This document shows, piece after piece, positions 24,615 to 57,565 of a stretch of DNA of 64,000 nucleotides. Position numbers and translations under genes: made by a program. Source of the DNA: an uncultured Actinomycetota bacterium (lineage in GTDB: Bacteria > Actinomycetota > Actinomycetes > S36-B12). Positions within the stretch are counted from its first letter, which is position 1; each line of letters begins with the position of its first letter. The notes below the pieces were generated by a model, which did not search any database, was not told where the DNA came from, and saw only the letters and a list, made by a program, of their open reading frames with translations. Location of the stretch: contig CAVVOF010000003.1 in NCBI GenBank assembly GCA_963749905.1, positions 980,235 through 1,044,234 on the forward strand. The letters run 5' to 3'.

Positions 24615-25660
24615 GCGAGCAGGTCCCACGCCAAGGGGGTGCCGCGCTCGACGTCGCGCGCCAGAGTTCGGCCGATGACGTCGCCCAGGTGCTTGTGGGG
24701 GCAGGCCATAGCCGGGACGGATGGCCCGGACATCGTCGGCCCCGAGCAGGTTCACCAGCTCGCTTGTCGCGGACTATGTATAGGGATCGTCGGTAGATGA
24801 GGGAGGGAACCTCCTCGGGCGCCGGTCCGAAGGACACGATGCCTCGTGCCCGCCAGGCCCGGCCCGCCTCCTCGACCATGGCGCGCAGTTCGTCGGGCTC
24901 GAGTGAGAACGCGCTGTCGACCGCACCATCGGCTCGACGCAGCGTGACGTGCTTCTCGATGACAGTCGCGCCCAGTGCCACGCTGGCCACCGGCACCCCG
25001 ATGCCGAGGGTGTGATCGGAGAGGCCGACCTCGCAGCCGAACGCCTCGGCCAGCACGGGGATGGCCGCCAGGTTGCTCGCCTCGGGCGGAGCGGGGTAGG
25101 TACTGGTGCACTTGAGGAGGACGAGCTCGGTGCAGCCAGCGGCGCGTGCTGTCGACACGGCCTCGTCGATCTCGGCGAGGGTGGCCATGCCGGTGGAGAT
25201 GATGACCGGCTTCCCGGTGCGTGCGACTTTCTCGATCAGCGGGAGGTCGGTGTTCTCGAACGAGGCGACCTTGTAGGCCGGGACGTTCAGGGACTCGAGG
25301 AAGTCCACGGCGGACGCGTCGAAGGGGGTGCTGAACGCCGTCAGACCGCGGGCACGCGCCCTGTCGAATATCGCACCGTGCCACTCCCAAGGCGTGTGCG
25401 CCTGTTCGTAGAGGGCATAGAGGTGGGACCCGAACCAGGGGCTCTCAGGCTCGCGGATCACGAATCCGGGCACCGTCGCAGTCCAGAGTCATCGTGTCTG
25501 CCGTGTACGTCTGCAGTTTGATGGCGTCGGCTCCTGCATCCGCCGCAGCGTCGACGATGGCTAGAGCCGTGTCGAGCGAGCCGCCATGGTTGCCCGATAG
25601 CTCAGCGATGACATAGGGGGCGTGCTCCGGGCCGATGTCGCGTCCGTTGATGGTGATCAT
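24611..25660 (-). CDS. pseI: Pseudaminic acid synthase (frameshifts near 25470 and 24760)
   Basis: [84 protein letters not shown]. Confidence 0.93.
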
Positions 25661-39075: not shown

Positions 39076-39876
39076 GTGGTGGATCCGAGCAGTGCGCGGC
39101 GGGTGCTGCTCGTCGTCGCCACCCTGGGGCAGCGCACCGCATTCCTGCGCGAGACCCTCGACTCGATCCGGACGCAGGCGGTGCCGGCGGACATCGTCGT
39201 CGTGGCCCCGGAGTCGTCTGAGCCCACTCGGGCACTTGCCGACGAGTTCGGCTGTCTGTTCGTGCCTGATCCGGGCAGCCTCACGTCGGCCATCAACCTG
39301 GGGGTCAGAGCCGGCCTCCGCGGTCACGAGTTCGTCAACTGGCTGAATGACGATGACGTGCTCGAGGCGGGTTCGCTCGCGGCGACGTCAGGGCTGCTGG
39401 ATTCCGATCCGGCAGCAGTGGTCGCATACGGCGCCTGCCGGTACATCGACCCCGAGGGTCGTGAGCTGTGGGTCAGCCGTGCTGGTCCGTGGGCGAACCG
39501 GATCCTCGGGTGGGGACCGGACCTGATACCTCAGCCCGGCATGCTGGTCAGGGCCTCGGCCTGGGTGGACGTTGGCGGGGTGGACGAGTCCTTCCGGTTC
39601 GCGTTCGACCTCGATCTGCTCCTGCGGCTCAGGCGCCTGGGTGCGCTGCGGGACACCGGCGCGGTCGTCTCTGCCTTCCGCTGGCATGAGGACTCGCTGA
39701 CCGTCGGGGACCGCAGCCAGTCCCTCGCCGAGTCTGAGCGAGCGAAGCGCGCCGCTCTCGGCCCGACGGCGCGCCGGCTGGCATGGGTGTGGGAAGGCCC
39801 GGTGCGCGTCGCCACCCGGATGGCCGCCCGGGAAGTCAGTCGCCGCGCCCGACGCGTTGCCCAGGGCCACGGCTAG
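39076..39876 (+). CDS. GT2 glycosyltransferase
   Basis: LVVATLGQR, AINLG, WLNDDDVL, IPQPG, GGVDESFRFAFDLDL; intact. Confidence 0.88.
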   Translation: MVDPSSARRVLLVVATLGQRTAFLRETLDSIRTQAVPADIVVVAPESSEPTRALADEFGCLFVPDPGSLTSAINLGVRAGLRGHEFVNWLNDDDVLEAGSLAATSGLLDSDPAAVVAYGACRYIDPEGRELWVSRAGPWANRILGWGPDLIPQPGMLVRASAWVDVGGVDESFRFAFDLDLLLRLRRLGALRDTGAVVSAFRWHEDSLTVGDRSQSLAESERAKRAALGPTARRLAWVWEGPVRVATRMAAREVSRRARRVAQGHG

Positions 39877-39910
39877 ACTCGGGCGGTCTGTCGGCGGGAA
39901 GGGCGTTCGC

Positions 39911-40894
39911 GTGTCGGAGTTCGATGGCTCGTCCATCCTCATCACCGGTGGCACCGGTTCGTTCGGCAAGGCGTTCCTCGCCGGGATCCTGGCGGCCCAC
40001 GACCCGCATCGGGTGATCGTCTACTCGCGCGATGAACTCAAGCAGTACGAGATGCGCGCCACCTTCGGCGACGATCTTCGCGTGCGATTCTTCATCGGGG
40101 ACATCCGGGACCGGGATCGACTGCGAATGGCCCTCCACGGCGTCGACTACGTCGTGCATGCTGCGGCGCTGAAGCAGGTGGACACCGCGGAGTACAACCC
40201 GATGGAGTTCGTCAAGACGAACATCCTCGGGTCGGAGAACGTCATCATGGCCGCACTCGATGCCGGGGTGAAGAAGGTCGTCGCGCTCTCCACAGACAAG
40301 GCGTCGTCGCCTATCAACCTCTACGGAGCCACGAAGCTGACCGCCGACAAGCTGTTCGTGTCGGCCAACCACTACGGCTCGAGCTACGGGACGACCTTCT
40401 CCGTGGTCCGCTATGGCAACGTCATGGGCAGTCGTGGGTCGGTCATCCCGTACTTCCGCTCCCTGGCGCAGAAGGGGGAGCCCCTGACGATCACGGACGC
40501 CCGAATGACGCGGTTCTGGATCACGCTCCCGCAAGCCGTCGACTTCGTGATGCGCAGCTTCGAGGTGATGGTCGGCGGGGAGCTCTACGTTCCCCGTATC
40601 CCCAGCACGCGGATCATCGACCTTGCGGAGGCCATCGCGCCGGGGTCACCCACGATCGAAACGGGCATTCGCCCCGGGGAGAAACTGCACGAGGAGATGA
40701 TCTCGGTCGAGGATGCCCGTAGGACCATCCGCCAGGACGACCGGTACATCGTTCTGCCGACGTTGGCGGAGTGGAACTTCACGCCGCCAACCGGCGAGGC
40801 AGTTCCGGAGGGCTTCGCGTACGCCTCCGACACCAACGAGCAGTGGCTCGACGTCAGGGAGATCAGGGCGCTGCTGGACCAGCTGGGGCTCTGA
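39911..40894 (+). CDS. pseB: UDP-N-acetylglucosamine 4,6-dehydratase (inverting)
   Basis: ILITGGTGSFG, YSRDELKQY, HAAALKQVDTAEYNP, LSTDKASSPINLYGATKL, VRYGNVMGSRGSV, MTRFWITL, GIRPGEKLHE. Confidence 0.95.
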   Translation: MSEFDGSSILITGGTGSFGKAFLAGILAAHDPHRVIVYSRDELKQYEMRATFGDDLRVRFFIGDIRDRDRLRMALHGVDYVVHAAALKQVDTAEYNPMEFVKTNILGSENVIMAALDAGVKKVVALSTDKASSPINLYGATKLTADKLFVSANHYGSSYGTTFSVVRYGNVMGSRGSVIPYFRSLAQKGEPLTITDARMTRFWITLPQAVDFVMRSFEVMVGGELYVPRIPSTRIIDLAEAIAPGSPTIETGIRPGEKLHEEMISVEDARRTIRQDDRYIVLPTLAEWNFTPPTGEAVPEGFAYASDTNEQWLDVREIRALLDQLGL

Positions 40895-40899
40895 CGCGG

Positions 40900-42054
40900 T
40901 CAGTTGAGCGCACTGAGCACCGCGTCGATCACCTGGTCGACCTCCGTGTCCGACAGCCTCGTATGCATCGGCAGGGAGATCTCGCGACGGTAGTACTCCT
41001 CTGCGCGCGGGCAGAGCCCTCGCGGATATCGCGAGGAGTCGAACGCCGGATGCCAGTAGGCCGGAATGTAGTTCACCTGGACGCCGATACCAGCATCGCG
41101 AAGGCTGACGAACGCTTCCGTCCGACGATCCTCAGGGACCCGGAGCGGGTAGAGGTGCCACATTGGGTCCACATCGGCCTCGGCGAAGGGGACGCGCACT
41201 CCCGGAAGAGTCACGAAGGCCTCGTCATAGCGTGACTTGATCTCCCCGCGCCTCGCCTTGAAGGAGGCGAGACGGCGCAGCTGGCTGGTGCCGAGGGCAG
41301 CGAGCAGGTCGGGGAGGCGGTAGTTCAGCCCGAACTCGTGTACCTCCTGGTGCCACGGCCCCTCGGTGGTGATGCGGAACTCGGACGGGTCGCGCACGAG
41401 TCCCTGTCGAGCGAATCGACGGGCCCGGTCGAGTAGCGCGGGGTCGCGGGCGAGCACGGCGCCGCCCTCGCCGGTGGTGACATTCTTCGTGGGGAAGAAC
41501 GACAGGGTGGTCAGGTCGGCAAGTGTTCCGACGGGCCGGCCACGGAAGACCGTGCCGATGCTGTGGGCCGCGTCCTCGATGAGCAGCAGCCCGCGCTCGT
41601 CGCACAGCGCCCTGAGCGCGTCCATGTCGGCAGGATGACCGGCGTAGTCGACGGCCGTGATCGCCCGAGTGCGGGGGGTCACCGCGGCGGCGGCGGCGCC
41701 GACATCGAGACACCCCGTGTCCGAGCTGACGTCGGCGAAGACGATGTCCGCCCCCAGGAGCGCGGCGGTGGCCTGGGTTGCCACGAAGGTCAGTGGTGGT
41801 GTGATGACCTCGTCGCCGGGGCCGATGCCCGCAGCCGCGTAGGCCACATGCAGGGCGGCGGTGCCCGACGACACGGCTACGGCCGGGGCGCCGCAGATGG
41901 CGCTGATGGCAGCCTCGAATTCGGCCACGGCAGGTCCGGTGGTGAGCCAGTCGCCCTTCAGGACGGCCTCCACGGCCTCGACGTCTGCGGCGTCGATGTC
42001 ATGACGGCCGTATGGGATCACCGACGTCGCCTCTCGTCGTGGGGATGGGCTCAT
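40900..42054 (-). CDS. pseC: UDP-4-amino-4,6-dideoxy-N-acetyl-beta-L-altrosamine transaminase (DegT/DnrJ family)
   Basis: IPYGRHDID, DWLTTGP, SSGTAALH, IEDAAHS, SFFPTKNVTTGEGG, GLNYRL, QVNYIP, ISLPMH. Start may instead be GTG at 42021. Confidence 0.9.
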   Translation of the reverse strand: MSPSPRREATSVIPYGRHDIDAADVEAVEAVLKGDWLTTGPAVAEFEAAISAICGAPAVAVSSGTAALHVAYAAAGIGPGDEVITPPLTFVATQATAALLGADIVFADVSSDTGCLDVGAAAAAVTPRTRAITAVDYAGHPADMDALRALCDERGLLLIEDAAHSIGTVFRGRPVGTLADLTTLSFFPTKNVTTGEGGAVLARDPALLDRARRFARQGLVRDPSEFRITTEGPWHQEVHEFGLNYRLPDLLAALGTSQLRRLASFKARRGEIKSRYDEAFVTLPGVRVPFAEADVDPMWHLYPLRVPEDRRTEAFVSLRDAGIGVQVNYIPAYWHPAFDSSRYPRGLCPRAEEYYRREISLPMHTRLSDTEVDQVIDAVLSALN

Positions 42055-42130
42055 GCTAGGCCTTCCTCGCCATGCAGCGTCAGCATGCTGTTCGTTGTGG
42101 TCGCGGGTCACGGTCACCTAGCATGCGGTG

Positions 42131-43750
42131 ATGCAGAGCGACGGTGGTGGCGCACGTCGCGTGTTGTCTGTCCTTGCTGTCGCTTTGGGCCTGCTCTTCA
42201 TGGGGGTCGCGTGGGCCTTTGCCTCACCCGTCGGCTCGAGCGCAGACGAGGGCTTTCACCTGGCATCCACGTGGTGTGCGTGGGGCGACCATGAGGACTG
42301 CGTGCGGGACGCGGACGACGGCAGCGTGCAAGTGCCCCAACAGGTAGCCGAAGCAGACTGTTTCGCGCTGAAGGACGAGTTGAACGCCCGCTGCACGTGG
42401 CTCCTGACAGACGCCCTCGTGCGCACTGAGGAGGTGAATCCGCCAGCCGGGGTCTATCCGCCGGTGTTCTACTCCACGATGCGCATGTTCGTCGGCCCGG
42501 ACGTGGCGCGGTCCGTGCTCATGATGCGGATGGGCAACGTCGCACTGGCCGCGGTGCTTCTGGCTGTCGCCCTGTGGATCGCCCCTACAGTGGTGCGGCG
42601 AGCGCTGGCGGTCGTCTGGGCTGTCTCACTCATCCCGGTCGGCATCTTCTTCATCGCGTCCGTGAATCCGAGTAGTTGGGCCATCACGGGAGTCGGGATG
42701 TTCTGGGCGTTCGCCTGGACATTGGCACGGAGCCGCTCGTTGCGGTCCCCACGCTCGGTCCTGGCGGTGATCGGAGCGTTGGGCACGGCTGTCATGGCGG
42801 TCGGTTCACGCTCCGACATGGTGCTCCCCATCGGGCTGTCGGTGGCCGCGGTAACGGTCATGGAATGGCGACGCATCCGATCGCGGGTGGCGACGCGCTG
42901 GCTGGCAGTAGGTCTGGCGGTGACCGGTGCGATCCTTGTCGCGGTCGCGTGGGTCTTCCACGTGGGTGGCTACCTCAGTCGGTTCACTCTGTCCTTCCCG
43001 CCCGGCGACGCAGGAACGGATCAGCCGAACCCACTGCTGAAGACCCTGCTGGAGGTGCCGGCGTTCGTGGCGGGCGTCTTCGGCGGTCAGCAACCGTGGA
43101 CGCAACGGGAGAGCATCAACGACTGGGGCCAGCAGGGCTACTCCTGGCACGGTTTCACCTACGGCGTTGGCGCCGTCGACGTGACGAATCCGTCAATCGC
43201 TGCCGTCCTGGCGGGCGCCTGCGCTGCCGGGGTCCTCTTCTTGGGTCTGGGAAGGGCCAGCCGCCGGAAGCTCGTCGTGGTGGCATCTCTGTCTGCCGTG
43301 TTCCTCGGACAGATCGTCCTCATGCGTGCTCTCGTGGGCTTCGGAGCATGGTGGAGCGGCGGCATCCAGTGGTCCCTTCAGCCCCGCTACTTCCTTCCGC
43401 TCGCCATGGTCATCGCCGCTTTCACAGTCGCCGTGTTCCCGCGCGTCGTGCCGTTCCTCACGCGAGCGCAGGCCGGAGTCCTCGCGGTGCTCCTGTCAAT
43501 CGCCTCGGTAACCTCGCTGGCCGGCACCATGGGTCGGTTCGTTCACGGTCAGGACCACTCCTGGGTGCAGCTGGATCCGGATTCCGGCTGGTGGTGGTCG
43601 TGGGGTCTGTCACCCACGGGCTTCGTGATGCTGGGTGGCCTCGCGGGGGTGGCCTACATGGCCGCCTTGATGGTCATCGCCCGTGAGCCAGGGTCCCGAC
43701 CGAGCGCTCGTAGCGACGTCCGGCCGCACGACGCCGTCCCCGCCGAGTGA
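42131..43750 (+). CDS. DUF2142 family membrane protein (putative GT-C glycosyltransferase)
   Basis: PVGSSADEGFH, YPPVFY, SVNPSSW, QPRYFLP; many TMs; TAGCAT 6 nt before ATG. Confidence 0.8.
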   Translation: MQSDGGGARRVLSVLAVALGLLFMGVAWAFASPVGSSADEGFHLASTWCAWGDHEDCVRDADDGSVQVPQQVAEADCFALKDELNARCTWLLTDALVRTEEVNPPAGVYPPVFYSTMRMFVGPDVARSVLMMRMGNVALAAVLLAVALWIAPTVVRRALAVVWAVSLIPVGIFFIASVNPSSWAITGVGMFWAFAWTLARSRSLRSPRSVLAVIGALGTAVMAVGSRSDMVLPIGLSVAAVTVMEWRRIRSRVATRWLAVGLAVTGAILVAVAWVFHVGGYLSRFTLSFPPGDAGTDQPNPLLKTLLEVPAFVAGVFGGQQPWTQRESINDWGQQGYSWHGFTYGVGAVDVTNPSIAAVLAGACAAGVLFLGLGRASRRKLVVVASLSAVFLGQIVLMRALVGFGAWWSGGIQWSLQPRYFLPLAMVIAAFTVAVFPRVVPFLTRAQAGVLAVLLSIASVTSLAGTMGRFVHGQDHSWVQLDPDSGWWWSWGLSPTGFVMLGGLAGVAYMAALMVIAREPGSRPSARSDVRPHDAVPAE

Positions 43751-46929: not shown

Positions 46930-48036
46930 CTACTGCGCGGCGCTCAGGATGCGCTCCGCAACCTGAGCGGCCGGCTCCTCGGGACCGGCCCACACCATCT
47001 GGTATGTCTGCTGGCGCATGGCCGCCAGCCGCCAGAAGTGGTCACTGGCGTTCGCGGGAGTGGCGATCTCCACCACTCGCGCAGAGCTCGGGCTGAAGGC
47101 CACGTTGGACAGGCCGGCGCCGTGCGTTCCCATCACGACGGCCGCCTCTGCGAACAGCGACACCTGCTCGGTCAGGGAAAGCGTGTGGCCCTCGACGACC
47201 TCGAGCTGCGGGAACATCCGCCGCAGGTTCGCGATCACGCCCTGCTCCTGCGGCATCGACCTTCGGAAGCCGACCCGTGACACGTACAGCCACCGGTGGC
47301 CCGGGGTGTCTGCGAGTCCGAAATGAGCGCGCAGCGTTGCAAGGCTCGACGGATGTACGTGCGAACTGAGGAACCCGCTAGCCGCCAGCCGCTGGACCGT
47401 GACCTTGGTGGCCGGTGTCGCGTGCACCTCGTTGGGGAGGGTGGATAGCGCGTCGGAAACGTAGCGGTGCCGGTTCGCGGGAGCGAGAACGCCTGCCTCG
47501 ACACCAAGGTGGTCCCGGGAGTAGGCGAGGGATGACAGCAGCGCCGGGAGGTCCTCGACAAGGAAGTGGTAGTAAGTGTGACTCGGCAGGACGGCCCAGG
47601 TCCCCCTGATTCGCTCGCGTGCCGAGCGTCGCGCGAGCCCCCGGACATCCTGTGATCGGGAGTAGCGGCTGTCGCCGCCCATGACCTCCACAACGGGGGC
47701 GCCCTCCGATCCCCAGACGGCCCCCGATTCGGGCGCCACGGAAGCCTCGGCAAGGCAGTAGCTCCAGGACGAGGGGATCGCCTGGTCCCTCGGGAGCCAC
47801 TCCGGAAGATCTCGCCGTGCGGGGAACCGAAGCACCTCTGCTGGGTGGCGTAGCCGCATGGCCTCCACCGTTGCCGTGAGGCGATCGGGCGGGCGGGTGG
47901 CGAGCGGACGAGACGCGGTCGACGTGCCTACTCGACCCGCGATGATGCGCTCGCAGGCGCGCAGCAGGGCCGTTCCGCGCCGGGCGTTCCAGTAGCGCAG
48001 GCGGTACTCCCAAGATTCCCGTCGGTCGGAGGTCAT
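46930..48036 (-). CDS. GT61 / DUF563 family glycosyltransferase
   Basis: TYYHFLVEDLP, LYVSR, R...QE, LSLTEQVSLFAEAAVVMGTHGAGLSN. Confidence 0.85.
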   Translation of the reverse strand: MTSDRRESWEYRLRYWNARRGTALLRACERIIAGRVGTSTASRPLATRPPDRLTATVEAMRLRHPAEVLRFPARRDLPEWLPRDQAIPSSWSYCLAEASVAPESGAVWGSEGAPVVEVMGGDSRYSRSQDVRGLARRSARERIRGTWAVLPSHTYYHFLVEDLPALLSSLAYSRDHLGVEAGVLAPANRHRYVSDALSTLPNEVHATPATKVTVQRLAASGFLSSHVHPSSLATLRAHFGLADTPGHRWLYVSRVGFRRSMPQEQGVIANLRRMFPQLEVVEGHTLSLTEQVSLFAEAAVVMGTHGAGLSNVAFSPSSARVVEIATPANASDHFWRLAAMRQQTYQMVWAGPEEPAAQVAERILSAAQ

Positions 48037-49100
48037 CGATGCAGATGCTCCCAGCCGAGCCCGGTGAATGACGGGCCGATGATCGCCTCGCTGTACGCGA
48101 CCCCGATGTGCCCCGCGTTCCACTCAAGGAGCCGGACGTCCTCCTTGGCGTCCACCGTCAGGTCCCACCCGATCAGGCCGAAATGGGGGAACCGCTCGTG
48201 CAGGCCGCGGGCGAGTTCGACGGCCTCGCGATAGCGAGGCAGTCGCCCGCCCGGCACGGTTCTGCCCGTTTCCGGATGCACCGGGCTGGGGAGCCAATCG
48301 TCGCCGTGACCGATCTCGGCCAGACGGCCGTCATCGGAGACGACGGCGACCATGAACTTGCTTCCCCCCCGCACGGCGTCCTGGCCGACGCGTCCGAACT
48401 TCACATTGCCGCAACGCACGGTGACCTCGCCGTCCAGCTCGCGAACGGTGACGATCCGATAGGTGGCGACGGGTCCACTGACTACTGCCTCGAGAGATGC
48501 GTGCGGTCGTATCCGCTCCTGGATCACAGCGTCCCCCAGCGTGTTCGCCTCCGCGCCGCGCAGTTCATCGAGTGACATGCTCCGAACCTGGTAGCCGCGG
48601 TACCCACCGTCTCGCTTGACGATGACAGTGTCGTGGACAGCCGCTATCGCCTCAAGCAGCCTCGTTCGTCCGATCTCCAGGAGATCCCGGTCATACCACC
48701 TGCCCCGGAGGACGTATCCGAGATCGGGGAGCGGAGCGCCCGGCAGCAGTCTGCGCGTCAGCGTCTTCGTGCTCGCCAGGCTCCCCAGGTGACCCGACAT
48801 CGCCGGCCCCACCCACCGGCCCATGTAGGTGGCCGGGATCCAGCCCTCCAGGAACTCCCCTCGCATGGCGGTGTAGACGTAGAGCCAAGGAGCGTGCCAT
48901 CGCGAACCGAGTACGTCCGTCGCGTACTGATCGCACGAGCGGCGCTGCGCGGAGTCCAGGTGGGCGCCCGCGTTGCGGACCGCGTTGTCCAGGGACTCCA
49001 GGGCGTCGATCCGCTGCGCCCGGTATGCCCGTGCGTGCTCGACGGAGGCGGCCAGGCTCTCCCAGCGCGTCGCAGCCCTGCGGGCTAGGTTGCTGACCAC
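48033..49100 (-). CDS. Sugar-transfer-associated ATP-grasp protein
   Basis: VIVKRDGGYRG, VIQERI..H, ATYRIVT, HPETG, IGWDL, LLEWN. Confidence 0.8.
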   Translation of the reverse strand: MVSNLARRAATRWESLAASVEHARAYRAQRIDALESLDNAVRNAGAHLDSAQRRSCDQYATDVLGSRWHAPWLYVYTAMRGEFLEGWIPATYMGRWVGPAMSGHLGSLASTKTLTRRLLPGAPLPDLGYVLRGRWYDRDLLEIGRTRLLEAIAAVHDTVIVKRDGGYRGYQVRSMSLDELRGAEANTLGDAVIQERIRPHASLEAVVSGPVATYRIVTVRELDGEVTVRCGNVKFGRVGQDAVRGGSKFMVAVVSDDGRLAEIGHGDDWLPSPVHPETGRTVPGGRLPRYREAVELARGLHERFPHFGLIGWDLTVDAKEDVRLLEWNAGHIGVAYSEAIIGPSFTGLGWEHLHR

Positions 49101-49203
49101 GTTCCGTACCTCTCGTCGACTACATCCTGCCGTGTCGTCCCGGCGGCCGCTCGCGGTTGGAGGCTCGGGGCGGGTGCCACCGCCCCGATTAGGCTGGCGA
49201 CCC

Positions 49204-49977
49204 ATGGCGACCGTCGACGTGCTGATGCCAGTGCGGGAGCCCGCGCCGTGGCTGCGCCACTCGCTGGATGGCCTGATGGAGGAGTCGGACGTCGACTGGA
49301 GACTTGTGCTCGTCGTGCACGGACCCGATGAGGCCACGTCGCGCACGGCAGACCGCTATCCAGTCCCACTCACCCTGTGCCATGCGGACGCGTCGTGTTC
49401 GCTCTCCGAGGTGCTCAACGTGGGGCTGGCCAACTGCACCGCTCCCTTCGTCGCCCGTGTGGATTCGGATGACGTCCCCCTGCGTGGACGTCTCGCGGAG
49501 ACGTCTCGACGCCTGGCCGAGGATCCAGATCTGACGGCCGTGGCTTCGTGGTCGGAGCTCGTCGACGCGGACGGTCGCGTCGCGGGCCGGGGTCCGCGTC
49601 CGTCGGATGAGGCGAACCTGCTGCGGGCGCTGCGATGGCGGAACGCCGTGGTGCATTCGAGTGTGACCTTCCGCCGGACCACCATCATCGACCTCGGGGG
49701 CTACACGGCAGGGCTGTCACAAGTCGAGGACTACGAACTCTGGCTCAGAGTGCTCGCCCACGGGCGATTCGGCCTGGTGCCCGAGGTGCTCGTACAGCAT
49801 CGGGTGCACCCCGACCAGGTGAGCCGGATCCGAGCAGTGCCGGCGGCCTCGGCACGGGCGGTTGGAGCTTCGCGGCTCGCGCTGGCCGACGGGCGCGGTG
49901 AGTCGGGCGCGGCGGCGCGGCTGCGTCACGCTGCCTGGTCGGGTCTGCAGACAACGCGTCGGTGGCACCGTGGCTAG
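49204..49977 (+). CDS. GT2 glycosyltransferase
   Basis: VDVLMPV, LNVGL, VARVDSDD, HSSVTFR, GGY...VEDYELWLR. Confidence 0.9.
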   Translation: MATVDVLMPVREPAPWLRHSLDGLMEESDVDWRLVLVVHGPDEATSRTADRYPVPLTLCHADASCSLSEVLNVGLANCTAPFVARVDSDDVPLRGRLAETSRRLAEDPDLTAVASWSELVDADGRVAGRGPRPSDEANLLRALRWRNAVVHSSVTFRRTTIIDLGGYTAGLSQVEDYELWLRVLAHGRFGLVPEVLVQHRVHPDQVSRIRAVPAASARAVGASRLALADGRGESGAAARLRHAAWSGLQTTRRWHRG

Positions 49978-51247
49978 GACGAGCCGGATTGCAGTCGAGC
50001 AGGTCCAGAACGTGGATGGCACCGTCAATCGCATGATCATGCAGGGCCGTGGCTCGATCGTGCTGCCAAGGACGATCCGCGTCGAGTATCTCCATGTCGA
50101 TGAATCGAGTCCGAGGTCGGTCGACGTGCTCGACGGATATCTGATGGGGGCTCTCCACTGGGCGATGGCAATCGGCGATCCGCTGGTGGTAGGTGGGCCG
50201 GTCACCCGAGCGGCTCTGCGGAATGCCGATGCGCTGATGGAGATCTGGGAGAGCTGGGTTCCGGACCGTTACCGGCGGATCGACATCCGTCCGGACACGG
50301 TGGTGGATGCCCCAGCGGGTGCCCTCTGGGAAGGCGACGGGGAGCGCGCGATTGCCGCCTTCTCGGGTGGTGTGGACTCGACCTTCACCCTGCTGAGGCA
50401 CGTCACTGGTTCCCCCGTTGCTTGGCCGTACGAGGTCCGGGACTCCGTCATGGTGCATGGCTTCGACGTTCCGCTTCACGACCGCTCGGCATTCGAGGGT
50501 CTCGTCAGGCGCACTGATCCGCTTCTCGAGGCGCTCGGCGTGCAGCGCCACGTCGTCAGGACCAACGTGCGCGAGTGGCCAGAACTCGACTGGGAGCAGA
50601 CCTATGGCGCACAGCTCGCCTGCGTGCTCCACCAGTTCTCGGGCGAATTCACCCACGGACTGATAGCGGGAGGGCCGCACTACCTGTCTCGGTGGACCGG
50701 TTGGGGAAGCACCGCACTCACGGACCCGCTGCTGTCGGGAGCTCGCATGGCGATCGTCCACGATGGTGCGGCCTTCACCCGGATCCCGAAGGTCTCGGTC
50801 ATCGCAGGTCACGACGTCGCGAAGGCTTCCGTCAAGGTGTGCTGGCAGGGGCCGTCACCCGAGCGGAACTGCGGCACATGCGAGAAGTGCCTTCGCACCA
50901 GGCTTTCCTTCTTGGCGGTCGGAGAGACCGAACCAGGATGCTTCGACGGTTCCCTTGACCTGGGTGCCATCCGAAGGATCTCCGTGCACAACCATCACGG
51001 CCTTCGGGACCTGCATCGCATCGTGGACTACTGCGACGCTCACGGGGTGGAGGGACACTGGCTCGACGCGCTGCGCTCGCGGTTGGACGAGCTGGACGCG
51101 AGTCACGTCGCAGGCGGTCCCGGCGGTCGGCGTCGGGTGCGGGCAGCCGGGGCACGTCGAACTCTCAGGCGGCTTCGAATGCGAGCCCGGGTTGCGGCGA
51201 GGGGTGCTACTCGGTTGAGCCGCTCAGCGGATCGACCTGAGTCGTGA
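49970..51247 (+). CDS. PP-loop (adenine nucleotide alpha-hydrolase) protein with QueC-like Cys motif
   Basis: AAFSGGVDSTFTL PP-loop, VHGFD, and C-terminal VCW-x7-NCGTCEKC. Confidence 0.65.
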   Translation: MARTSRIAVEQVQNVDGTVNRMIMQGRGSIVLPRTIRVEYLHVDESSPRSVDVLDGYLMGALHWAMAIGDPLVVGGPVTRAALRNADALMEIWESWVPDRYRRIDIRPDTVVDAPAGALWEGDGERAIAAFSGGVDSTFTLLRHVTGSPVAWPYEVRDSVMVHGFDVPLHDRSAFEGLVRRTDPLLEALGVQRHVVRTNVREWPELDWEQTYGAQLACVLHQFSGEFTHGLIAGGPHYLSRWTGWGSTALTDPLLSGARMAIVHDGAAFTRIPKVSVIAGHDVAKASVKVCWQGPSPERNCGTCEKCLRTRLSFLAVGETEPGCFDGSLDLGAIRRISVHNHHGLRDLHRIVDYCDAHGVEGHWLDALRSRLDELDASHVAGGPGGRRRVRAAGARRTLRRLRMRARVAARGATRLSRSADRPES

Positions 51248-52323
51248 CGGCCCACCCGAGTTTCGGGCTGCTGGTCGCCCCGACGATGAACCTTGGTGAC
51301 GATATCCAGGCCCTGGCCGCGCTCCGGTATCTGCCCGGCGCCAGCTACCTCATCGACCGGGATGACCTCGGCGCCGCGGCCGCTCCTGCCGGAACCCCGC
51401 TGGTGGCGAACGGTTGGTGGGTCAACTATCCCGAGCGACTCAGCATGTCCACGTGCCGGCTGGATCCGCTGCTCACGTCGATCCACATCGCTCGTTCGGG
51501 GGTCCTCAGCGCGAACGGCACCTCGGTCATCGACGTGCTCGACAGGCCGGAGGTCCTGGAGTACCTACGCGAGCGCGGACCCGTGGGCTGCCGGGATCTC
51601 GCCTCTCGTGACCTGCTGGTCGAGCGCGGCGTCGACGCGTTCTTCTCTGGTTGCCTGACGTTGACCCTGCCGTTGACGGCCAAGGGCGTCGCACAGCCTT
51701 CCGCAACTCGAATCCTGGCGGTGGATATGCCGCGTCGTCTCATGGCACTTGTACGCAGATGGAGTGGTCTGCCGGTCGCGACGTTGACGAACTGGATCTC
51801 GCCGCGGGCCGCGGGCCGGGAGCGCCTCCTGGCTGCTCGTCATCGACTGCTGCAGATCGAGCGGGCGCACGCGGTCATCACCACCCGCCTCCACGTGGCC
51901 CTTCCCTGCATCTCGCTTGGTGTCCCCGTGCTGTGGGTGGTGCCCCGCGGACCGGATAGTCGAGTCGACTCCTACCGATCGTGGGTTCCCACGAGCACTG
52001 TCGAGGGCTTGGCCGAGGAGCTGGGTCGGCGGGCGGATGGTTGGCCCGCCAACCCGCGAGCACATGAGGACACGGCCGCCGCACTCGCCGAGTCCGTGCG
52101 ATCCTGGGTATCCGGACGGCGCGCCACTCCTCCCGGAGATAGACACCCACCCGGCGCGGCCCCTCTGGTCACATACGACGGCCTGACCGCCGAGGCGACC
52201 AGACGCTGGGCAGATCTCGACCGCGACGCGAGCTTGCGGGTGCGGCATGCTCGCTGGGCGATGACGGATCGCATTCGACACCGCCGCCGCATTGTCGATG
52301 AGGTGACGAGATCGGGCCTCTAG
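51244..52323 (+). CDS. Polysaccharide pyruvyltransferase family protein
   Basis: NLGDDIQALA, GCRD, FSGCLTLTL, VITTRLHVALPCISLGVP. Confidence 0.85.
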   Translation: MTAHPSFGLLVAPTMNLGDDIQALAALRYLPGASYLIDRDDLGAAAAPAGTPLVANGWWVNYPERLSMSTCRLDPLLTSIHIARSGVLSANGTSVIDVLDRPEVLEYLRERGPVGCRDLASRDLLVERGVDAFFSGCLTLTLPLTAKGVAQPSATRILAVDMPRRLMALVRRWSGLPVATLTNWISPRAAGRERLLAARHRLLQIERAHAVITTRLHVALPCISLGVPVLWVVPRGPDSRVDSYRSWVPTSTVEGLAEELGRRADGWPANPRAHEDTAAALAESVRSWVSGRRATPPGDRHPPGAAPLVTYDGLTAEATRRWADLDRDASLRVRHARWAMTDRIRHRRRIVDEVTRSGL

Positions 52324-52329
52324 GATCGA

Positions 52330-53208
52330 GTGGTGCCTGTTGACGTCATCGTGACTGCCAGCCACGGCTGCCGCCACGCAGCTACGGTGCTGAGTGTCAT
52401 TCGGCAACAGTGCAAGGCCGGCGATCGGCTCCTCGTCCTCGAGTCTGAACCGTGCGACTTCACGCCGGGGGTGGCAGGTGCGGAAGATCATGTGACCGGC
52501 TCGGTTGACGACTTCGAGAGCCGAGTCGAGGGTCTGCGGCGGTCGACGGGCGACACCGTGCTCATCCTCGAGGACCACGGAGTCCCCGAGCCTGAGTTCC
52601 TCGAGGCCCTTCGCACGTACTTCGGCGAACACAAGGACCAGACCGCAGTCACCTTCTGGATGCGGAACGGCTCCCTGGACGGGGCGGCTTCGCGAGCGCT
52701 CTTCGCCTTCGTCGCTGGTGCGGCAGTGTCGACGCGAACGGCTGGCCGTCCGGCGATTGTCGCCTCGTCCTTTGCCCTCACCGGTCAGGAACTCGAGGAC
52801 TGCCGTCAGGCGGCCCGTGACGGTGTGTTGGCCCCCGGAAACCTTGAGTACCAGGTCATTCCGCGGCTCCTTTCGGGGGCGAAGAGCTCGGTTCCCACCG
52901 AGCTGACGCTCATCCACCATCAGCGCAACACCGTGCGTGAGGCCCTCAGCGCCACCTACTGGAACGCACGCCAAACTGGCTGGGTGGAACGTGATGCGAG
53001 ACTGTCGGGGGGCGCTGTCCGCCACACCGTCAAGCGGTATCCGGGACGAGCCGTCCGGCTGCTGCGACGAGGTCGAGGAGATCTGCCCGAGCGCTGCATC
53101 CTTGTCGCCATGGGCTCTGTGGGGCTGGCCGGTTGGTGGGCCGGCAGGCTTCATGGTCCCGGACGGTCCGCTACCAGGCTGCGCGATGCGCACCCAGTCC
53201 CCGCCTGA
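52330..53208 (+). CDS. GT-A fold (GT2-like) protein
   Basis: VDVIVTA, VLILEDH (DXD-like), hydrophobic C-terminus. Confidence 0.5.
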   Translation: MVPVDVIVTASHGCRHAATVLSVIRQQCKAGDRLLVLESEPCDFTPGVAGAEDHVTGSVDDFESRVEGLRRSTGDTVLILEDHGVPEPEFLEALRTYFGEHKDQTAVTFWMRNGSLDGAASRALFAFVAGAAVSTRTAGRPAIVASSFALTGQELEDCRQAARDGVLAPGNLEYQVIPRLLSGAKSSVPTELTLIHHQRNTVREALSATYWNARQTGWVERDARLSGGAVRHTVKRYPGRAVRLLRRGRGDLPERCILVAMGSVGLAGWWAGRLHGPGRSATRLRDAHPVPA

Positions 53209-53213
53209 GTCCG

Positions 53214-54800
53214 ATGCGACGCCGGCGAACGACCTACGAGGACGCGGTTCGCGACCGACTCGACCTGATCGAAGAGCAGCTGGGTCTGCCGCGCGGGCGG
53301 GCCGCCTTGGGTTCAGATGATCGGATCAGGGAACTCCTTCTCGATGGCAGGCGTCCGGCGGAGTTGAGGGCCGCGGTCGTGATCCTGGCGGCGACAGGGA
53401 GCTACGCCTCGCAGGACCGGCAGCGTGAGCTTGCCGCCTGGATCTCAACTGGCAGCCTGCCTGACTGCACCGCCCTGCTCGCGCGCTGGATTCGCGCGGC
53501 ACCTGCGCGGGCGCGGCAACGTCGTCTTGAGGTCCCGCCAGCGGTCGTGGTCGACCTGACCCGAACCAGTCGGGCGGTGGAGACGACGGGGATTCCTCGG
53601 GTGGCCCGCGCCCTCGCCGCTGAGGCGGTCGCGCGTGGATACGTGCCGATCGTTTGGGAGGGCGGGGCGCCCGGCCCCGTCGAGCTGGGGAACGAGGGGT
53701 CCGACGTGGTCTTCCCTGACTCGGCTTGGGGCGCCGCGGGAGTTAGGCGGCGCGGCGCTGCGGCTCTGAAGCGAAGCTACTGGCACGCCATGAGATGGCT
53801 CTCGATGGTTCGTGGGGGAGCCCAAGTCGTTCGGCTGCTGCGCGCCGTCGCCGCACCGCTCGGTGACGCGATCAACGATCGTTCCGGGCCAACGCACGCA
53901 TACTTGTTGGCCAACTGCCACTACGTGAGCCCGGAGGTGAACCGTCCGGACACGGTCACCAGGATCCTGGCGTGGCGAGAGGCGTGCGACAGTGTCCGCC
54001 TGACGGTCACCCTGCATGATCTGCTCCCGCTGGTTGAGCCACGGTTCTTCGCGCCGGACCAACGGGTCGAACACATCGACTTCATGAATCTGGTGGCACA
54101 CGCCGACTGCGTCGTGGTCGCGTCAGACCATCTGGTGGAGCAGGTCGAGGGGTCCTGCCAGCTGCTGGGCGCTCAGTCGACGCCGGCGGTCGAGGTGGTT
54201 CCCTACGGGAGTGATGCCGCGTCGTGGATCCCTAAGGGCGCGCCCGAGGAGCGTCGTCCGGCGTTCCTGATGGTCGGCAGCATGGAACTGCGGAAGAACC
54301 ACGCGCTGGCCCTGCGAGCGTTGGGGTTGCTCTCGGAGAGTGGGACCCCTACGACACTGCACGTCGTAGGCAGCGCGCGGCCCGTTCACCCAGACACCGT
54401 TGCAGCGCTCGACTACGCCCGACGCAGTGGCGTCGAGGTGATCGAGCACCGCGGAGCAACCGACAGTCACCTCGCGGGGATCATGGATTCCTGCATCGCG
54501 TCCCTCTACCTGTCATGGGCGGAGGGATTCGGCCTGCCTGTCGTCGAGTCGCTTGCCCGCGGGCTTCCCGTCATCGCGACGGACACCCCACCGCATCGAG
54601 CGCACCAGCGATACGGAGGCGTAGTGCTGACCGCGGTAGACCGGCCGACCGAACTGGCAGATCTTCTGCGGAAGTACATCGAGAATGCCAGCCTGCGAGA
54701 CGATCTCCGCCGTTCCATCACCCGTGACTCACTCCCGCGCGGCTACGTGGAGTGGGCTGAGCGGGTGTTTCACGGTGGGTTGCCGCGCCGGGTCAGCTGA
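53214..54800 (+). CDS. GT4 glycosyltransferase with N-terminal extension
   Basis: VVDLTRT...TGIPRV, LHDLLP, FLMVGSMELRKNH, SWAEGFGLPVVESLARG. Confidence 0.85.
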   Translation: MRRRRTTYEDAVRDRLDLIEEQLGLPRGRAALGSDDRIRELLLDGRRPAELRAAVVILAATGSYASQDRQRELAAWISTGSLPDCTALLARWIRAAPARARQRRLEVPPAVVVDLTRTSRAVETTGIPRVARALAAEAVARGYVPIVWEGGAPGPVELGNEGSDVVFPDSAWGAAGVRRRGAAALKRSYWHAMRWLSMVRGGAQVVRLLRAVAAPLGDAINDRSGPTHAYLLANCHYVSPEVNRPDTVTRILAWREACDSVRLTVTLHDLLPLVEPRFFAPDQRVEHIDFMNLVAHADCVVVASDHLVEQVEGSCQLLGAQSTPAVEVVPYGSDAASWIPKGAPEERRPAFLMVGSMELRKNHALALRALGLLSESGTPTTLHVVGSARPVHPDTVAALDYARRSGVEVIEHRGATDSHLAGIMDSCIASLYLSWAEGFGLPVVESLARGLPVIATDTPPHRAHQRYGGVVLTAVDRPTELADLLRKYIENASLRDDLRRSITRDSLPRGYVEWAERVFHGGLPRRVS

Positions 54801-56640
54801 GGCCCAGCAGACCGGCCTGTGTGTTGAACGCCGGCACCGCGGCTCGTACCTCGGCGAAAGTTCCGAGCGCGACGAGTCTGCCCTCGTCCAGGTACGCAAC
54901 CTGGTCGGCGTCGCGCACGGTGGCCAGCCGGTGGGCCACCGTGACGAGGGTGACCTGACCCGAGAGGTCGCGCAGCGCATCGGTGATGGCCTGTTCGGTC
55001 TGGGCGTCCAATGCGCTCGTGGCCTCGTCCAGCACGACCAACTGCGGGTCCGAGTACAGCGCTCGGGCGAGCCCGAGGCGTTGCCGCTGCCCCCCGCTGA
55101 GGCGCGTACCGCGTTCGCCAACCCTGGCGGCGAGTCCGCCCTCCCGGTCGCGGACGAAGTCGGCGAGTCGAGCGCGTTCGAGGGCGTGCCACACTCGCTC
55201 GTCATCGATGAGGTCCTCAGGGATCCCGAGGGCGACGTTCTGCCGGACCGACCCGTCCATCAGTCCCACTGCCTGGGGAACGTACGCGATCCCGCCCGGC
55301 CAGCGATGGACGGCGTCCTGCGGGGCCAGGCCGCCGACGCGAACGGTGCCACCCTGCGGCTCGATGACTCCCAGCAGGACATCGGCAAGGGTCGACTTCC
55401 CCGCTCCGGTGCTGCCCACGACCGCGAGGGACTGACCTGGCGGAACCTTCAGACAGACGCCGAGAAGCGCGGGTTCGGGAGCATCGGGATAGGTGAAGGC
55501 CACGTTGTCGAGGGAGACCGAGGCGGAGAAGTCCGCGAAGCCCTGCGCGATGCGCGCTGCGAGGACCGCACCCGAGTGCTCGCCCGGCGAAGGACTGGCG
55601 GACTCGACCTTGGGCAGCGCGTCGTCGAGTTCGAACACGATCGCCGCCTCACCCGAGGCGGACCGGATGGCGATGAGTCCTCCCTGCATGCGCAGGATCG
55701 ACGGCATGATTCGCAAGGCAGCCGTGATGAACACGGCCAGCGTCGCGACGGCGCCCTCGACGCTGCCGCTGAGCAGTTGCGTGCTCGCGAGCAGCAGCGC
55801 ACCGATGACCAAGGCGGCCTCGAGGACGTACTTCGGTACCTGCTGGATGAACAGTCCGTCCGCGCGGGCGACGGCACCGTCCCAGAGTCCCGCGCGAACC
55901 CGGTCCCGGTACACACCGCGTCGACCAGCCGTCGCCAGTTCGCGGAACGAGGCGATCCCCTCCTGGATCGCCACGGTGCTCGAGACCCCGATCCGGGCGG
56001 CACGTGACCCGACGCGTCCGGCCCACCGACCCATAAACCTCTGCAGCACCAGACCGATGACCGCAAAGTAGACGATCGTCGCCACCGTGAGCACGGGGTT
56101 GACGACCAGGAGCAGTGCGACGATCAGAGTCATCAGGGAGAGTTCGCTGATGGCGATCGAGGCCGCGCCGAGCAGTCCGACGGTCGCTGCGCTGGCACCG
56201 GATGTCAGGGCGTAGGCGGTCTCCTGGGACGACCGAGACTGCACGGTGGTCAGCGACTGGGCGAAGAGGCGTCCGGTGAGGTCCGAGGCGAGCAGGCCCT
56301 GTCGGTTCGCGAGGAAGCGGAGTGTCCGACGCGTGAGTATCAGCCCGATCACCGACTTGCCCACCAGCAGGCAGGCCGCGAGGCCGGCCGCGACGAGGGT
56401 GAGCTGAGCGGTGCTCCAGTCCTGGAGTCCGATTGCGCTGATGACTCCGTCGACTTGGTCGGGGAGAGGGGCGCCCGCCACCGTGTTCAGCGCCAGGTAG
56501 GCGACGAGGCCGATGAGGATGATCCCGACGAAGTCGAGGAAGGACGTCGTCGCCTGGAGTCCGACGGCCAGCCAGTACCTGCGTCGATCCCGCGGCCACA
56601 ACAAGCGCAGGGCGCGCCGGACCGAGGCGATCGCCGTCAC
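54793..56640 (-). CDS. Second ABC exporter, fused TMD-NBD (MsbA/PglK-like)
   Basis: TM domain; GSTGAGKST; YVPQ; LSGGQRQRLGLARAL; LDEATSALD; VAHRL; intact from GTG at 56640. Confidence 0.92.
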   Translation of the reverse strand: MTAIASVRRALRLLWPRDRRRYWLAVGLQATTSFLDFVGIILIGLVAYLALNTVAGAPLPDQVDGVISAIGLQDWSTAQLTLVAAGLAACLLVGKSVIGLILTRRTLRFLANRQGLLASDLTGRLFAQSLTTVQSRSSQETAYALTSGASAATVGLLGAASIAISELSLMTLIVALLLVVNPVLTVATIVYFAVIGLVLQRFMGRWAGRVGSRAARIGVSSTVAIQEGIASFRELATAGRRGVYRDRVRAGLWDGAVARADGLFIQQVPKYVLEAALVIGALLLASTQLLSGSVEGAVATLAVFITAALRIMPSILRMQGGLIAIRSASGEAAIVFELDDALPKVESASPSPGEHSGAVLAARIAQGFADFSASVSLDNVAFTYPDAPEPALLGVCLKVPPGQSLAVVGSTGAGKSTLADVLLGVIEPQGGTVRVGGLAPQDAVHRWPGGIAYVPQAVGLMDGSVRQNVALGIPEDLIDDERVWHALERARLADFVRDREGGLAARVGERGTRLSGGQRQRLGLARALYSDPQLVVLDEATSALDAQTEQAITDALRDLSGQVTLVTVAHRLATVRDADQVAYLDEGRLVALGTFAEVRAAVPAFNTQAGLLGLS

Positions 56641-57565
56641 GGCTCCACGGTTCCGCGCACGCGCCACTCCTCTGCCGGGAGCCCAGTCCGCCGGAGGAGG
56701 GCGTTCGCGTATGTCGCCGACGCCGCCGGTGATGCCCGCCAGCCTCGTCCACTCCGCGGGGTGGCGGCGCACGTACTGGGCGAGCCAGGCGGCCAGGTGC
56801 GCGTCCTCCTTGCGCGCCGCCCTGCCGTAGCTCGCCCGGTCGGAGTTGGACCGGCCGTAGATGATGCTCACCGGCTCCGGGAACTCCTCGACGTGCGTGG
56901 TGGGCGGTGCCGCGGCGATCGCCATCTCGATGCGCATCGGTCCGGTCTTGCGGGGCCGGCTCGTCGCGCAGGGCGAGGAAGCTCTCGAACGGGCAGACCG
57001 ATCCGCTCATCTGCATGTAGGTCGGCTGCACCAGCTGCTGCCTGATCCACTCGAGTACGGGCAGCCGAGTGGGACCCGCGACCCGGGAAGCTCGTCCAGC
57101 TCTCCAGTGGCTCGTCCCAGGGTCCGTCGAACGGAACCGGTCCGCCTGCTCGTGGCGCATGGCCCAGGGGCCGAAGTACGCGGTGCCGGGCCGCAGCGGC
57201 CAGCGCGCCGTGCGCATCGACGATCGCGTCGATGCCGCGCGACCTGACTTCGTCGTCGTAGGCCAGCCAGTAGATCCAGTCGCTCGGGTCGGACGCCGTT
57301 CCGTTCGAGGTGGATCGACCCAGAACGCCTGATGTGCCATGGTCGGCAGTTCGCGCCCGGTGCAGATCACCTCCACGCCCGGGTGCTGCTCAGCGAAGTC
57401 GCCTTGCCTGCGCATGTCCGTCGGAATCAGGCGACGAGGTGACGCTCAGCAGCACGCGCTGGAAGTGGTGGCAGGCTCGCCGCGATCGACGTCCAGGCAT
57501 CGTTCGAACCGCGCACCTCCCCGCCAGACCATGACGACGAGGATGGCTGTGGACTGCCCGGTCAT
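56637..57565 (-). CDS. GT-A fold glycosyltransferase (frameshifts)
   Basis: ILVVMVWRGG, WIYWLAYDDE (DXD-like), QMSGSV; ATGA and GTGA overlaps with both neighbours. Confidence 0.55.

Follow-up and report, generated by a model that had tools for sequence, protein, structure and literature searches.

PP-loop enzymes adenylate an oxygen of a first substrate, after which a nucleophile displaces AMP; QueC, Cap9 and ArtA use carboxylate substrates and a nitrogen nucleophile in such reactions, and the same has been proposed for QatC (PMC13279940, PMC13376578). QatC, which belongs to the QatABCD anti-phage system, is a PP-loop protein of the QueC family, for which adenylation has been proposed and whose substrate is not known (PMC13279940, PMC13376578); its PP-loop is located at residues 156-161 and its Zn site is formed by Cys332/352/355/358, the equivalent Cys site also binding Zn in QueC (PMC13376578). 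Polysaccharide pyruvyl transferases of family PF04230 bind phosphoenolpyruvate (PEP) through R148 and H308 in CsaB and through R337-L338-H339 in Pvg1p, and function with PEP alone in vitro (PMC10435577), and no characterised member has been described with a PP-loop partner or fusion (PMC6801904). Here, we describe a PP-loop protein (designated T) that is encoded directly upstream of a polysaccharide pyruvyl transferase (designated PT) in a 64,000-nt stretch of contig CAVVOF010000003.1 from an uncultured Actinomycetota bacterium (the whole of this stretch is referred to as the window). T is a member of a distinct, large and unannotated PP-loop family with a new partner, and its functional tie to the pyruvyl transferase represents the strongest result of this analysis.

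T is encoded by the middle gene of a trio, composed as follows.

49204..49977, + strand: GT2 glycosyltransferase, first gene of the trio (PF00535, 28.3 bits; PF13641, 27.1 bits)
49970..51247, + strand: T, 425 aa, PP-loop ATP-pyrophosphatase-like, from an uncharacterised family that DUF6395 covers in part
51244..52323, + strand: PT, polysaccharide pyruvyl transferase (PF04230, E 7.4e-12, 46.2 bits versus a cut-off of 25.3)

The GT2 gene, whose product is weakly similar to EpsE, starts at ATG 49204 and stops at TAG 49975-49977. For T, GTG 49970 was chosen as the start codon, in agreement with the N-termini of homologues and the first strand of the structural model, and T residue numbers are counted from this codon. 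The GT2 and T genes overlap by 8 nt at 49970-49977 (GTGGCTAG), and the T stop codon TGA 51245-51247 overlaps the PT start codon GTG 51244 (GTGA); as read from these overlaps, GT2, T and PT are translationally coupled. The first-pass annotation of this locus had placed T across the GT2 stop codon, had described it as GTGA-coupled to a pyruvyltransferase-like gene, had assigned its flanks to the GT2 and pyruvyltransferase families and had noted an absence of nearby que genes. Each of these points was borne out, the family assignments by the matches listed above and the last point by neighbours that are glycan genes and by the lack of any PF06508 (QueC) match at E≤0.01 across the whole 3.28-Mb genome.

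Within T, the following parts were distinguished, partly on the basis of an AlphaFold2 (AF2) model, for which local confidence is given as the predicted local distance difference test score (pLDDT).

49970..50329, + strand: family-specific N-terminal domain, approximately residues 1-120, beta-beta-beta-alpha-beta-alpha-beta in the AF2 model (pLDDT 86-98)
50363..50380, + strand: PP-loop SGGVDS, residues 132-137, within AFSGGVDS (residues 130-137)
50840..50890, + strand: Cys4 motif C291-WQGPSPERN-C301-GT-C304-EK-C307, predicted Zn site
51110..51244, + strand: basic C-terminal tail, predicted to be helical, its final 45 residues carrying a net charge of +13 (pLDDT 51-77)

Alignment of 107 homologues revealed that G134 and D136 of the PP-loop are invariant, with S132 and G133 conserved in at least 90% of sequences. 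The loop aligns with the PP-loops of GMP synthetase and QueC, and loosens to [ST]xGxD[SACG] in the wider family and its more distant members. The four cysteines C291, C301, C304 and C307 are also invariant in this alignment, and the Cys4 motif was observed in all 92 family members (92/92) derived from 72 species loci, the first spacer varying from ~6 to 14 residues. Certain family members display sub-threshold PF06508 matches across the Cys4 region (model positions 162-205), with P0039 and P0081 scoring 17-19 bits against a cut-off of 22 over the Cys motif only. Further invariant residues among the 107 homologues are G164-F165-D166, T198, W208, D252, K274 and R309, and a fifth, nearly invariant cysteine (C324) is located outside the Cys4 motif. 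The first-pass annotation had reported SGGVDS together with C-x8-CGxCxKC; both motifs are present, yet the spacing is in fact C-x9-C-x2-C-x2-C, one residue longer. We infer that the Cys4 motif of T binds Zn.

The N-terminal domain was shown to lack a Pfam match and to contain the conserved residues D55, G56, G76, N85, W93, W96, P98 and Y101. At the opposite end of the protein, a net positive tail was found in all 94 tailed homologues (94/94, median +7 over 35 residues), and in natural fusions of T with PT the same segment constitutes the linker to PT. No transmembrane or hydrophobic segment was found in T, and the basic tail may help to hold this protein at the inner face of the membrane, on lipid-linked intermediates.

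The AF2 model of T (pLDDT 91.3, predicted template modelling score (pTM) 0.90) is composed of an N-terminal beta3-alpha-beta-alpha-beta domain, a Rossmann core, a helical region containing the Cys4 motif, and a long basic C-terminal helix. A Foldseek comparison with PDB structures produced a single match below 1e-3, being QatC (9y02_B; E 7.6e-5, probability 1.0, 411 columns, TM-score 0.39, 15% identity), followed by the ATP pyrophosphatase (ATP-PPase) domain of GMP synthetase, NcsA (6scy, probability 0.75), the nitrile synthetase ArtA, and Cap9. By its motif and the Rossmann-like fold of the model, T belongs to the PP-loop ATP pyrophosphatase superfamily and would be expected to convert ATP to AMP and PPi in a substrate-dependent manner, by way of an adenylated intermediate. 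The earlier description of T as a PP-loop enzyme with a QueC-type Zn motif is thus upheld by its motifs and by the fold matches to QatC, GMP synthetase, NcsA, ArtA and Cap9.

T shares with QatC (PDB 9y02; PMC13279940, PMC13376578) an N-terminal extension of ~130-150 residues, a PP-loop Rossmann core, a Cys4 site in a C-terminal helical region and a length of ~425 aa. However, the N-terminal (Var1) region of QatC consists of a four-stranded parallel sheet and five helices, as opposed to the beta3-alpha-beta-alpha-beta arrangement of T (PMC13376578), and the Cys spacer of QatC is x19 compared with x9 in T. Furthermore, qatA, qatB and qatD are not found beside T, whose partner is a pyruvyl transferase in a glycan operon, and no PADLOC or profile-level sequence match accompanies the 15% identity and the TM-score of 0.39. 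Membership of the QatC/Cap9 family was accordingly rejected on the lack of a PADLOC match (no match to T at E≤1) and on the identity of the neighbouring genes (GT2, PS_pyruv_trans, ATP-grasp and GT4); as judged from the model, the relation between T and QatC is one of fold resemblance and not of membership.

T and QueC both have SGGxDS early in the catalytic domain and both carry C-x(8-9)-C-x2-C-x2-C towards the C-terminus, and by analogy the expected chemistry would be the same, i.e. carboxylate adenylation followed by nitrogen attack. Conversely, T, with additional parts at both termini, has double the length, it is encoded outside a queD/queE context, and it falls outside the ten clusters of the 2026 survey of PF06508 (PMC13329287), from which the T family is missing because it is not detected by PF06508. 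An hhalign comparison of T with 11 actinobacterial QueC sequences reached 51% probability over 59 columns around the PP-loop, an alignment so weak that substrate residues are not transferable. The binding motifs for 7-carboxy-7-deazaguanine (CDG), namely YxQxHxxE, VPxRN and YPDC, which were defined in the same survey (PMC13329287), were found to have no counterpart in T, where the position of YGQ is occupied by VHGFDV in the hhalign alignment. Membership of QueC was therefore rejected, based on the lack of a PF06508 match at E≤0.01, of the CDG motifs and of a que context. The label 'QueC-like' of the first-pass annotation consequently holds at the level of fold and motif and fails at the sequence level. 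CDG is not the substrate of T, since the genome is without QueC and T is without CDG-binding motifs. With no PF06508 gene in the genome (queD and queE were not searched), de novo CDG production is unlikely, and de novo 7-deazaguanine synthesis is probably absent from this organism; among sampled genomes of the phylum, PF06508 QueC was present in only 11 of 41.

Membership of the WbpG/LfnA/PseA N-acetyl sugar amidotransferases (TIGR03573) was also rejected, as T has no NCBIfam or Pfam match to this family. These PP-loop enzymes of surface-glycan loci, which add nitrogen to a sugar substituent, represent the nearest functional precedent for T, and to our knowledge WbpG-type genes have no known pairing with pyruvyl transferases. 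They constitute cluster 5 of PF06508, in which, unlike in T, the order of the Cys motif and the substrate triad is reversed according to the survey (PMC13329287).

The sole Pfam match of T was a sub-threshold match to DUF6395 (PF19932; 23.1 bits versus a cut-off of 25) at residues 314-358 of the 461-aa open reading frame. The homologues P0239 and P0270 pass this cut-off, and P0102 is named 'DUF6395 domain-containing protein'. The DUF6395 model spans the Cys4 region and the following helices of the T family, corresponding to ~45-100 of ~400 conserved residues, and misses both the PP-loop and the N-terminal domain; no mention of DUF6395 was found in a full-text literature search. No NCBIfam model matched T at E≤0.01, and the single T protein retrieved nothing from the PDB sequences at E≤10, while the T family profile retrieved only PP-loop-level GMP synthetase matches (E≥0.16), which do not constitute a family assignment. 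More than 892 homologues of T, almost all of which are named 'hypothetical', were obtained by a word-indexed search, and an exhaustive profile search returned 8,526 representative clusters (50% identity) at E≤1e-3 and 3,260 at E≤1e-30. Species loci encoding members of the family were derived from Acidobacteriota, Pseudomonadota, Verrucomicrobiota, Planctomycetota, Actinomycetota, Chloroflexota, bacteria of the candidate phyla radiation, Bathyarchaeia and haloarchaea.

PT is encoded by the sole PF04230 gene of the genome, and shares with CsaB and Pvg1p the RD and RLH PEP-binding motifs, present here within NLGDD, GCRD..S and TTRLH. The PT partners across the T family likewise retain NxGD, R(D/E)..S and (T/D)R(L/Y/M)H; a pyruvate ketal, and hence a new carboxylate, is therefore expected at this point of the pathway. 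To locate PT genes in the T-encoding loci, an iterative hidden Markov model (HMM) search was employed, and all of the ten less obvious matches that were checked (10/10) scored above the Pfam gathering score. A PF04230 gene was present within 10 kb of the T-family gene in 33 of the 72 species loci, and was adjacent (within ~250 nt) or fused in 23 of the 72, mostly immediately downstream and on the same strand; if PT genes were placed randomly among ~20 genes, a position beside T would be expected in ~10% of cases.

Fusions of T and PT into one polypeptide were identified in 8 of the top 120 homologues (620-706 aa, carrying PF04230) and, among the top 150 representatives of the family, in no fewer than 12. 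When modelled, the C-terminal domain of such a fusion matched Pvg1p (5ax7) at E 1e-7 and the uncharacterised KP1_0663 at E 4e-11, and the model of a natural T-PT fusion showed two confident domains separated by a disordered linker, with a pTM of 0.64. One methyltransferase (P0369, T-Methyltransf_24) was the only other fusion partner of T observed, and in Pelagibius (L100:3862-8709) a mini-cluster encodes PT, a TylF-Methyltransf_24 O-methyltransferase, T and a flippase; this fusion and this cluster together point to the methyltransferase as a second, rarer partner of T. Neither a PP-loop partner of pyruvyl transferases nor a combination of pyruvyl transferase and 7-cyano-7-deazaguanine synthase was found in a full-text literature search. 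T is thus functionally tied to the pyruvyl transferase, as the first-pass annotation had supposed from a single locus, the pairing recurring across many phyla and often as one fused polypeptide.

The closest relatives of T (53-65% identity) share contigs with the closest relatives of the window PT, and the cassette composed of a divergently oriented sugar-transfer-associated ATP-grasp gene (ATPgrasp_ST) and the GT2, T and PT genes is retained in these relatives though the surrounding genes differ. The GT2 gene occupies the same position in relatives L095 and L097, and ATPgrasp_ST has the same position and orientation beside GT2-T-PT in L095, L096 and L097. Since ATPgrasp_ST is kept beside T, the cassette would carry two different carboxylate-activating enzymes. 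ATPgrasp_ST was also the immediate neighbour of T in four loci without PT; an HMM search located an ATP-grasp in only two further species loci, indicating that it belongs to the cassette of the closest relatives and not to the T family as a whole.

Among the 72 species loci, recurrent neighbours of T encode GT2 (22 loci), an ATP-binding cassette (ABC) exporter (21), GT4 (14), an epimerase (11), DegT (8) and AsnB-like proteins (7), in addition to flippases, Wzc and nucleotidyl transferases. T homologues are therefore enriched in glycan loci, the point on which the first-pass annotation had itself staked its proposal, and this part of its view of T as a glycan-linked family stands; it does not extend to one tandem-array clade and several close homologues, which reside in non-glycan contexts (see below).

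A maximum-likelihood tree of 91 T-family members resolved three well-supported groups, of which clade A comprises 18 members including the window T (8 PT-adjacent), clade B 32 members (3 PT-adjacent) and clade C 41 members (13 PT-adjacent). PT adjacency required 19 changes on this tree compared with 21.3 in shuffles, and is not clustered. A single origin of a PT-specific subfamily was rejected on this scatter; with PT adjacency spread over two of the three main clades and many phyla, the link appears to have been kept or re-made repeatedly, rather than inherited once.

The window has a GC content of ~68%, and Pfam and NCBIfam profile matches delineate a cell-wall glycan locus at ~38-57 kb, which encodes PseB, PseC, a DUF2142 membrane protein, a WecA/MraY-type initiating transferase, an epimerase/dehydratase, GT4, GT61, GT2, ATP-grasp and a fused ABC exporter. 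Features of the window outside the trio are as follows.

39857-42117 and ~23760-25473: pseudaminic acid pathway genes (PseB, PseC, PseI and PseG-like)
42128-43750: DUF2142 membrane protein (121.6 bits), adjoining the WecA-like initiating transferase
46930-48123, - strand: GT61 gene, overlapped by the ATPgrasp_ST gene at the 3' end of the latter
48033..49346, - strand: ATPgrasp_ST (PF14397, E 1e-18), divergent from the trio
52330-53208, + strand: GT2-like gene downstream of PT (PF00535, 22.3 bits, sub-threshold)
~53133-54800, + strand: GT4 (PF00534, 63.2 bits)
54793..56937, - strand: ABC exporter with fused transmembrane and nucleotide-binding domains (PF00005, 98.2 bits)

PseB matched TIGR03589 at 486.7 bits, above the equivalog cut-off, and PseC scored 396.8 bits; PseI (339.2 bits, just below its cut-off) and the PseG-like protein (a weak match) are encoded further upstream in the window. 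Given these pathway genes, the surface polymer or polymers made by the locus probably contain a nonulosonic acid. The DUF2142 protein probably acts in this glycan pathway as a GT-C-like enzyme, and the pair of DUF2142 and WecA-like transferase genes was also observed in relative L095. The true start of the ATP-grasp gene is probably located downstream of 49346.

The GC content at third codon positions (GC3) of the GT2-T-PT trio is 0.76-0.79, compared with 0.80-0.88 in neighbouring genes, and the coding composition of the trio is normal; horizontal transfer as deduced from composition was dropped, the GC3 difference being too small to argue from. T was present in one of the 33 genomes of its genus, with two others showing weak, divergent matches only, and this distribution, a better sign than GC3 composition, indicates that T is accessory. 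In one congener (G006:C5:7064-9067; loci L080, L082 and L083), a close T orthologue was not found, and two or three T-like matches, all very divergent (E 5e-13 to 4e-7), lie side by side, which may represent another tandem set of distant paralogues.

Taken together, we tentatively favour, at somewhat less than an even chance, a role for T as a soluble cytoplasmic PP-loop ATP pyrophosphatase that adenylates a carboxylate, most plausibly that of a pyruvate ketal, for amidation, as part of a cassette in an ABC-transporter-dependent cell-wall glycan locus. In this scheme, GT2 would add a sugar to a lipid-linked intermediate and the PF04230 enzyme would install a pyruvate ketal on this sugar, with PEP as the donor. 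T would then adenylate a carboxyl group at the expense of ATP, the free carboxylate of the ketal being the most plausible one, and ammonia or another amine would resolve the acyl-AMP to a neutral amide; further conversion of the amide, as in QueC, is conceivable. Amidation would precede export by the ABC transporter, while the lipid-linked intermediate is still cytoplasmic. Exactly one new functional group, a carboxylate, arises from the action of a PEP-dependent ketal-pyruvyl transferase, and the simplest explanation for a soluble, ATP-dependent T that is coupled or fused to such an enzyme is that it acts on that carboxylate. Amidation of a pyruvate ketal or of a uronate was also the tentative suggestion of the first-pass annotation. 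Moreover, the fold neighbours of T all adenylate a substrate, or are proposed to do so, before attack by a nucleophile (PMC13376578, PMC13279940), which is counted in favour of this scheme. The T-PT module probably embodies a new glycan chemistry. Its extension to the family, according to which T and PS_pyruv_trans form a widespread and often fused two-enzyme module that installs a ketal and then converts the ketal carboxylate in an ATP-dependent manner to an amide (using ammonia or an amino compound) or a nitrile, is possible yet doubtful.

Several observations weigh against the action of T on a pyruvate ketal. An amidated pyruvate ketal is not known as a substituent of glycans and is absent from the review of pyruvylation (PMC6801904) and from full-text literature searches, and the window offers other candidate substrates, i.e. 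the pseudaminic acid pathway (carboxylate or N-acyl groups) and the product of the adjoining ATP-grasp. Channelling of substrate between the two domains of the fusion has nothing in its support, since the fusion model (pTM 0.64) lacks a confident inter-domain geometry and thus neither supports nor contradicts it. In 39 of the 72 loci, PT is not found within 10 kb, and clade B is almost devoid of PT. The latter clade includes tandem arrays outside glycan loci and without PT (L043:1190-10912 and L062:8247-17099), of which a Planctomycetaceae metagenome-assembled genome (MAG) has seven copies and an Acidobacteriota MAG no fewer than five; one array lies beside PrpD, LOG-like, SDR and CPSase genes, and the other beside an HlyD/MacB exporter and an Asn-synthase-like gene. 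Several close homologues of T (41-44% identity) are orphans, lie beside multicopper oxidase or copper-resistance genes, or are situated in a mobile element. For example, P0086 (L101:6001-7236) is an orphan among small unannotated genes in a region resembling an integrative and conjugative element (ICE) or plasmid, which also encodes ParB, a large helicase and a TrwC relaxase. Plasmid p3 of Azospirillum brasilense Sp7, a non-pathogenic strain amenable to genetics, carries multicopper oxidase, PT and T genes in this order and no other glycan gene (L104, NZ_CP012917.1 566948-571045; the PT-T pair comprises AMK58_RS27450 and RS27455), the T homologue (AMK58_RS27450) being named 'hypothetical protein' in RefSeq, and on a Dongiaceae contig T is located between multicopper oxidase/DUF1638 and copper-ATPase/MerR genes. 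A multicopper oxidase gene beside T or PT-T was observed in three unrelated proteobacterial contexts (L104; L099:5184-9260; L006:8056-11167), one of which also contains copper P-type ATPase, HMA and MerR genes, and such adjacency was found in only one of the 72 species loci.

As an alternative, T might tailor the glycan at another group, by amidating a nonulosonic (pseudaminic) or uronic carboxylate or by converting an N-acetyl to an acetamidino group in the manner of WbpG, LfnA and PseA, in which case PT adjacency would reflect a shared side-branch cassette. WbpG-type PP-loop enzymes provide a precedent in O-antigen loci (PMC13329287), and PseB, at 486.7 bits, is accompanied in the window by PseC, PseI and a PseG-like protein. 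In addition, AsnB-like amidotransferases are encoded near T in seven loci; where no PT is adjacent, the gene next to T encodes such an enzyme in five loci and an ATPgrasp_ST or RimK-type ligase in several others. More than half of the loci lack PT. Nevertheless, we regard this alternative as unlikely: T matches neither the N-acetyl sugar amidotransferases nor any other NCBIfam model, its only recurrent fusion partner is PT and not a Pse or uronate gene, the GT2-T-PT genes of its closest relatives are without Pse genes in the 21-kb stretches examined, and the PT-T pair stands alone in Azospirillum brasilense Sp7.

A conjugating role similar to that of QatC and Cap9 is improbable. Here, a small molecule adenylated by T would be joined to an amine of a protein or peptide, or to some other non-glycan target, and service in glycan loci would be one of several uses of the family. 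QatC is the only solid structural neighbour and has a similar layout, and the ICE-like orphan, the tandem arrays beside HlyD/MacB exporters and Asn-synthase-like genes, and the T-family genes beside multicopper oxidase and copper genes would suit such a role. These indications are opposed by the lack of a PADLOC match at E≤1 and of qat or CBASS neighbours, by the low identity (15%) and TM-score (0.39) to QatC together with the different topology of the N-terminal domain, by the T-PT fusions, in which the N-terminus of PT is not free, and by the position of the window T in the middle of a glycan operon.

It is quite improbable that T acts upstream of PT by adenylating pyruvate or a related small carboxylic acid, or by otherwise producing an activated donor, which the PT-fold enzyme would then transfer. 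The gene order is compatible with this, as the T gene comes first in the window and in most of the pairs, the fusions have T as their N-terminal part, and genes are commonly fused because they encode consecutive steps of one pathway. However, the PEP motifs of CsaB and Pvg1p (NxGD, R[DE]..S and [TD]R[LYM]H) are conserved in the PT partners, so that no new donor is needed, PEP alone suffices for PF04230 enzymes in vitro (PMC10435577), and orphan T genes without PT exist. The suggestion of the first-pass annotation that a PT-fold partner transfers the product of T has accordingly become less likely, in view of the retained PEP-binding RD and RLH motifs.

Lastly, a role for T in sulfur insertion, as in PP-loop enzymes such as LarE, TtcA or NcsA, in which the cysteines would hold an Fe-S cluster and an adenylated carboxylate or carbonyl would become a thio-derivative, is barely plausible: NcsA (6scy, probability 0.75) is among the fold matches, C324 is a fifth nearly invariant Cys and LarE shows that PP-loop enzymes can thiolate carboxylates (PMC13329287), but the Cys spacing and position fit the structural Zn site of QueC and QatC and not three-Cys Fe-S sites, cysteine desulfurase or sulfur-carrier genes do not recur in the neighbourhoods of T, and thiolated glycan substituents are not known.

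The repeated adjacency and fusion of T to PT suggests a modification of the sugar coat that has not been described. Pyruvate ketals are a source of negative charge on bacterial surface polymers and act as recognition epitopes, for instance in anchoring through surface layer homology (SLH) domains and in binding by lectins and antibodies. If T acts on the ketal, a dedicated ATP-dependent enzyme that rewrites the ketal carboxylate would represent a new way to tune surface charge and antigenicity, and its product, with a neutral or basic group in place of a negative charge, would be a substituent new to the structural chemistry of glycans. The enzyme would also give the QueC-type scaffold a third functional branch, next to deazapurine synthesis and the conjugation of proteins in anti-phage defence, and would explain an unannotated family of thousands of members (8,526 clusters at 50% identity) that extends across bacteria and some archaea.

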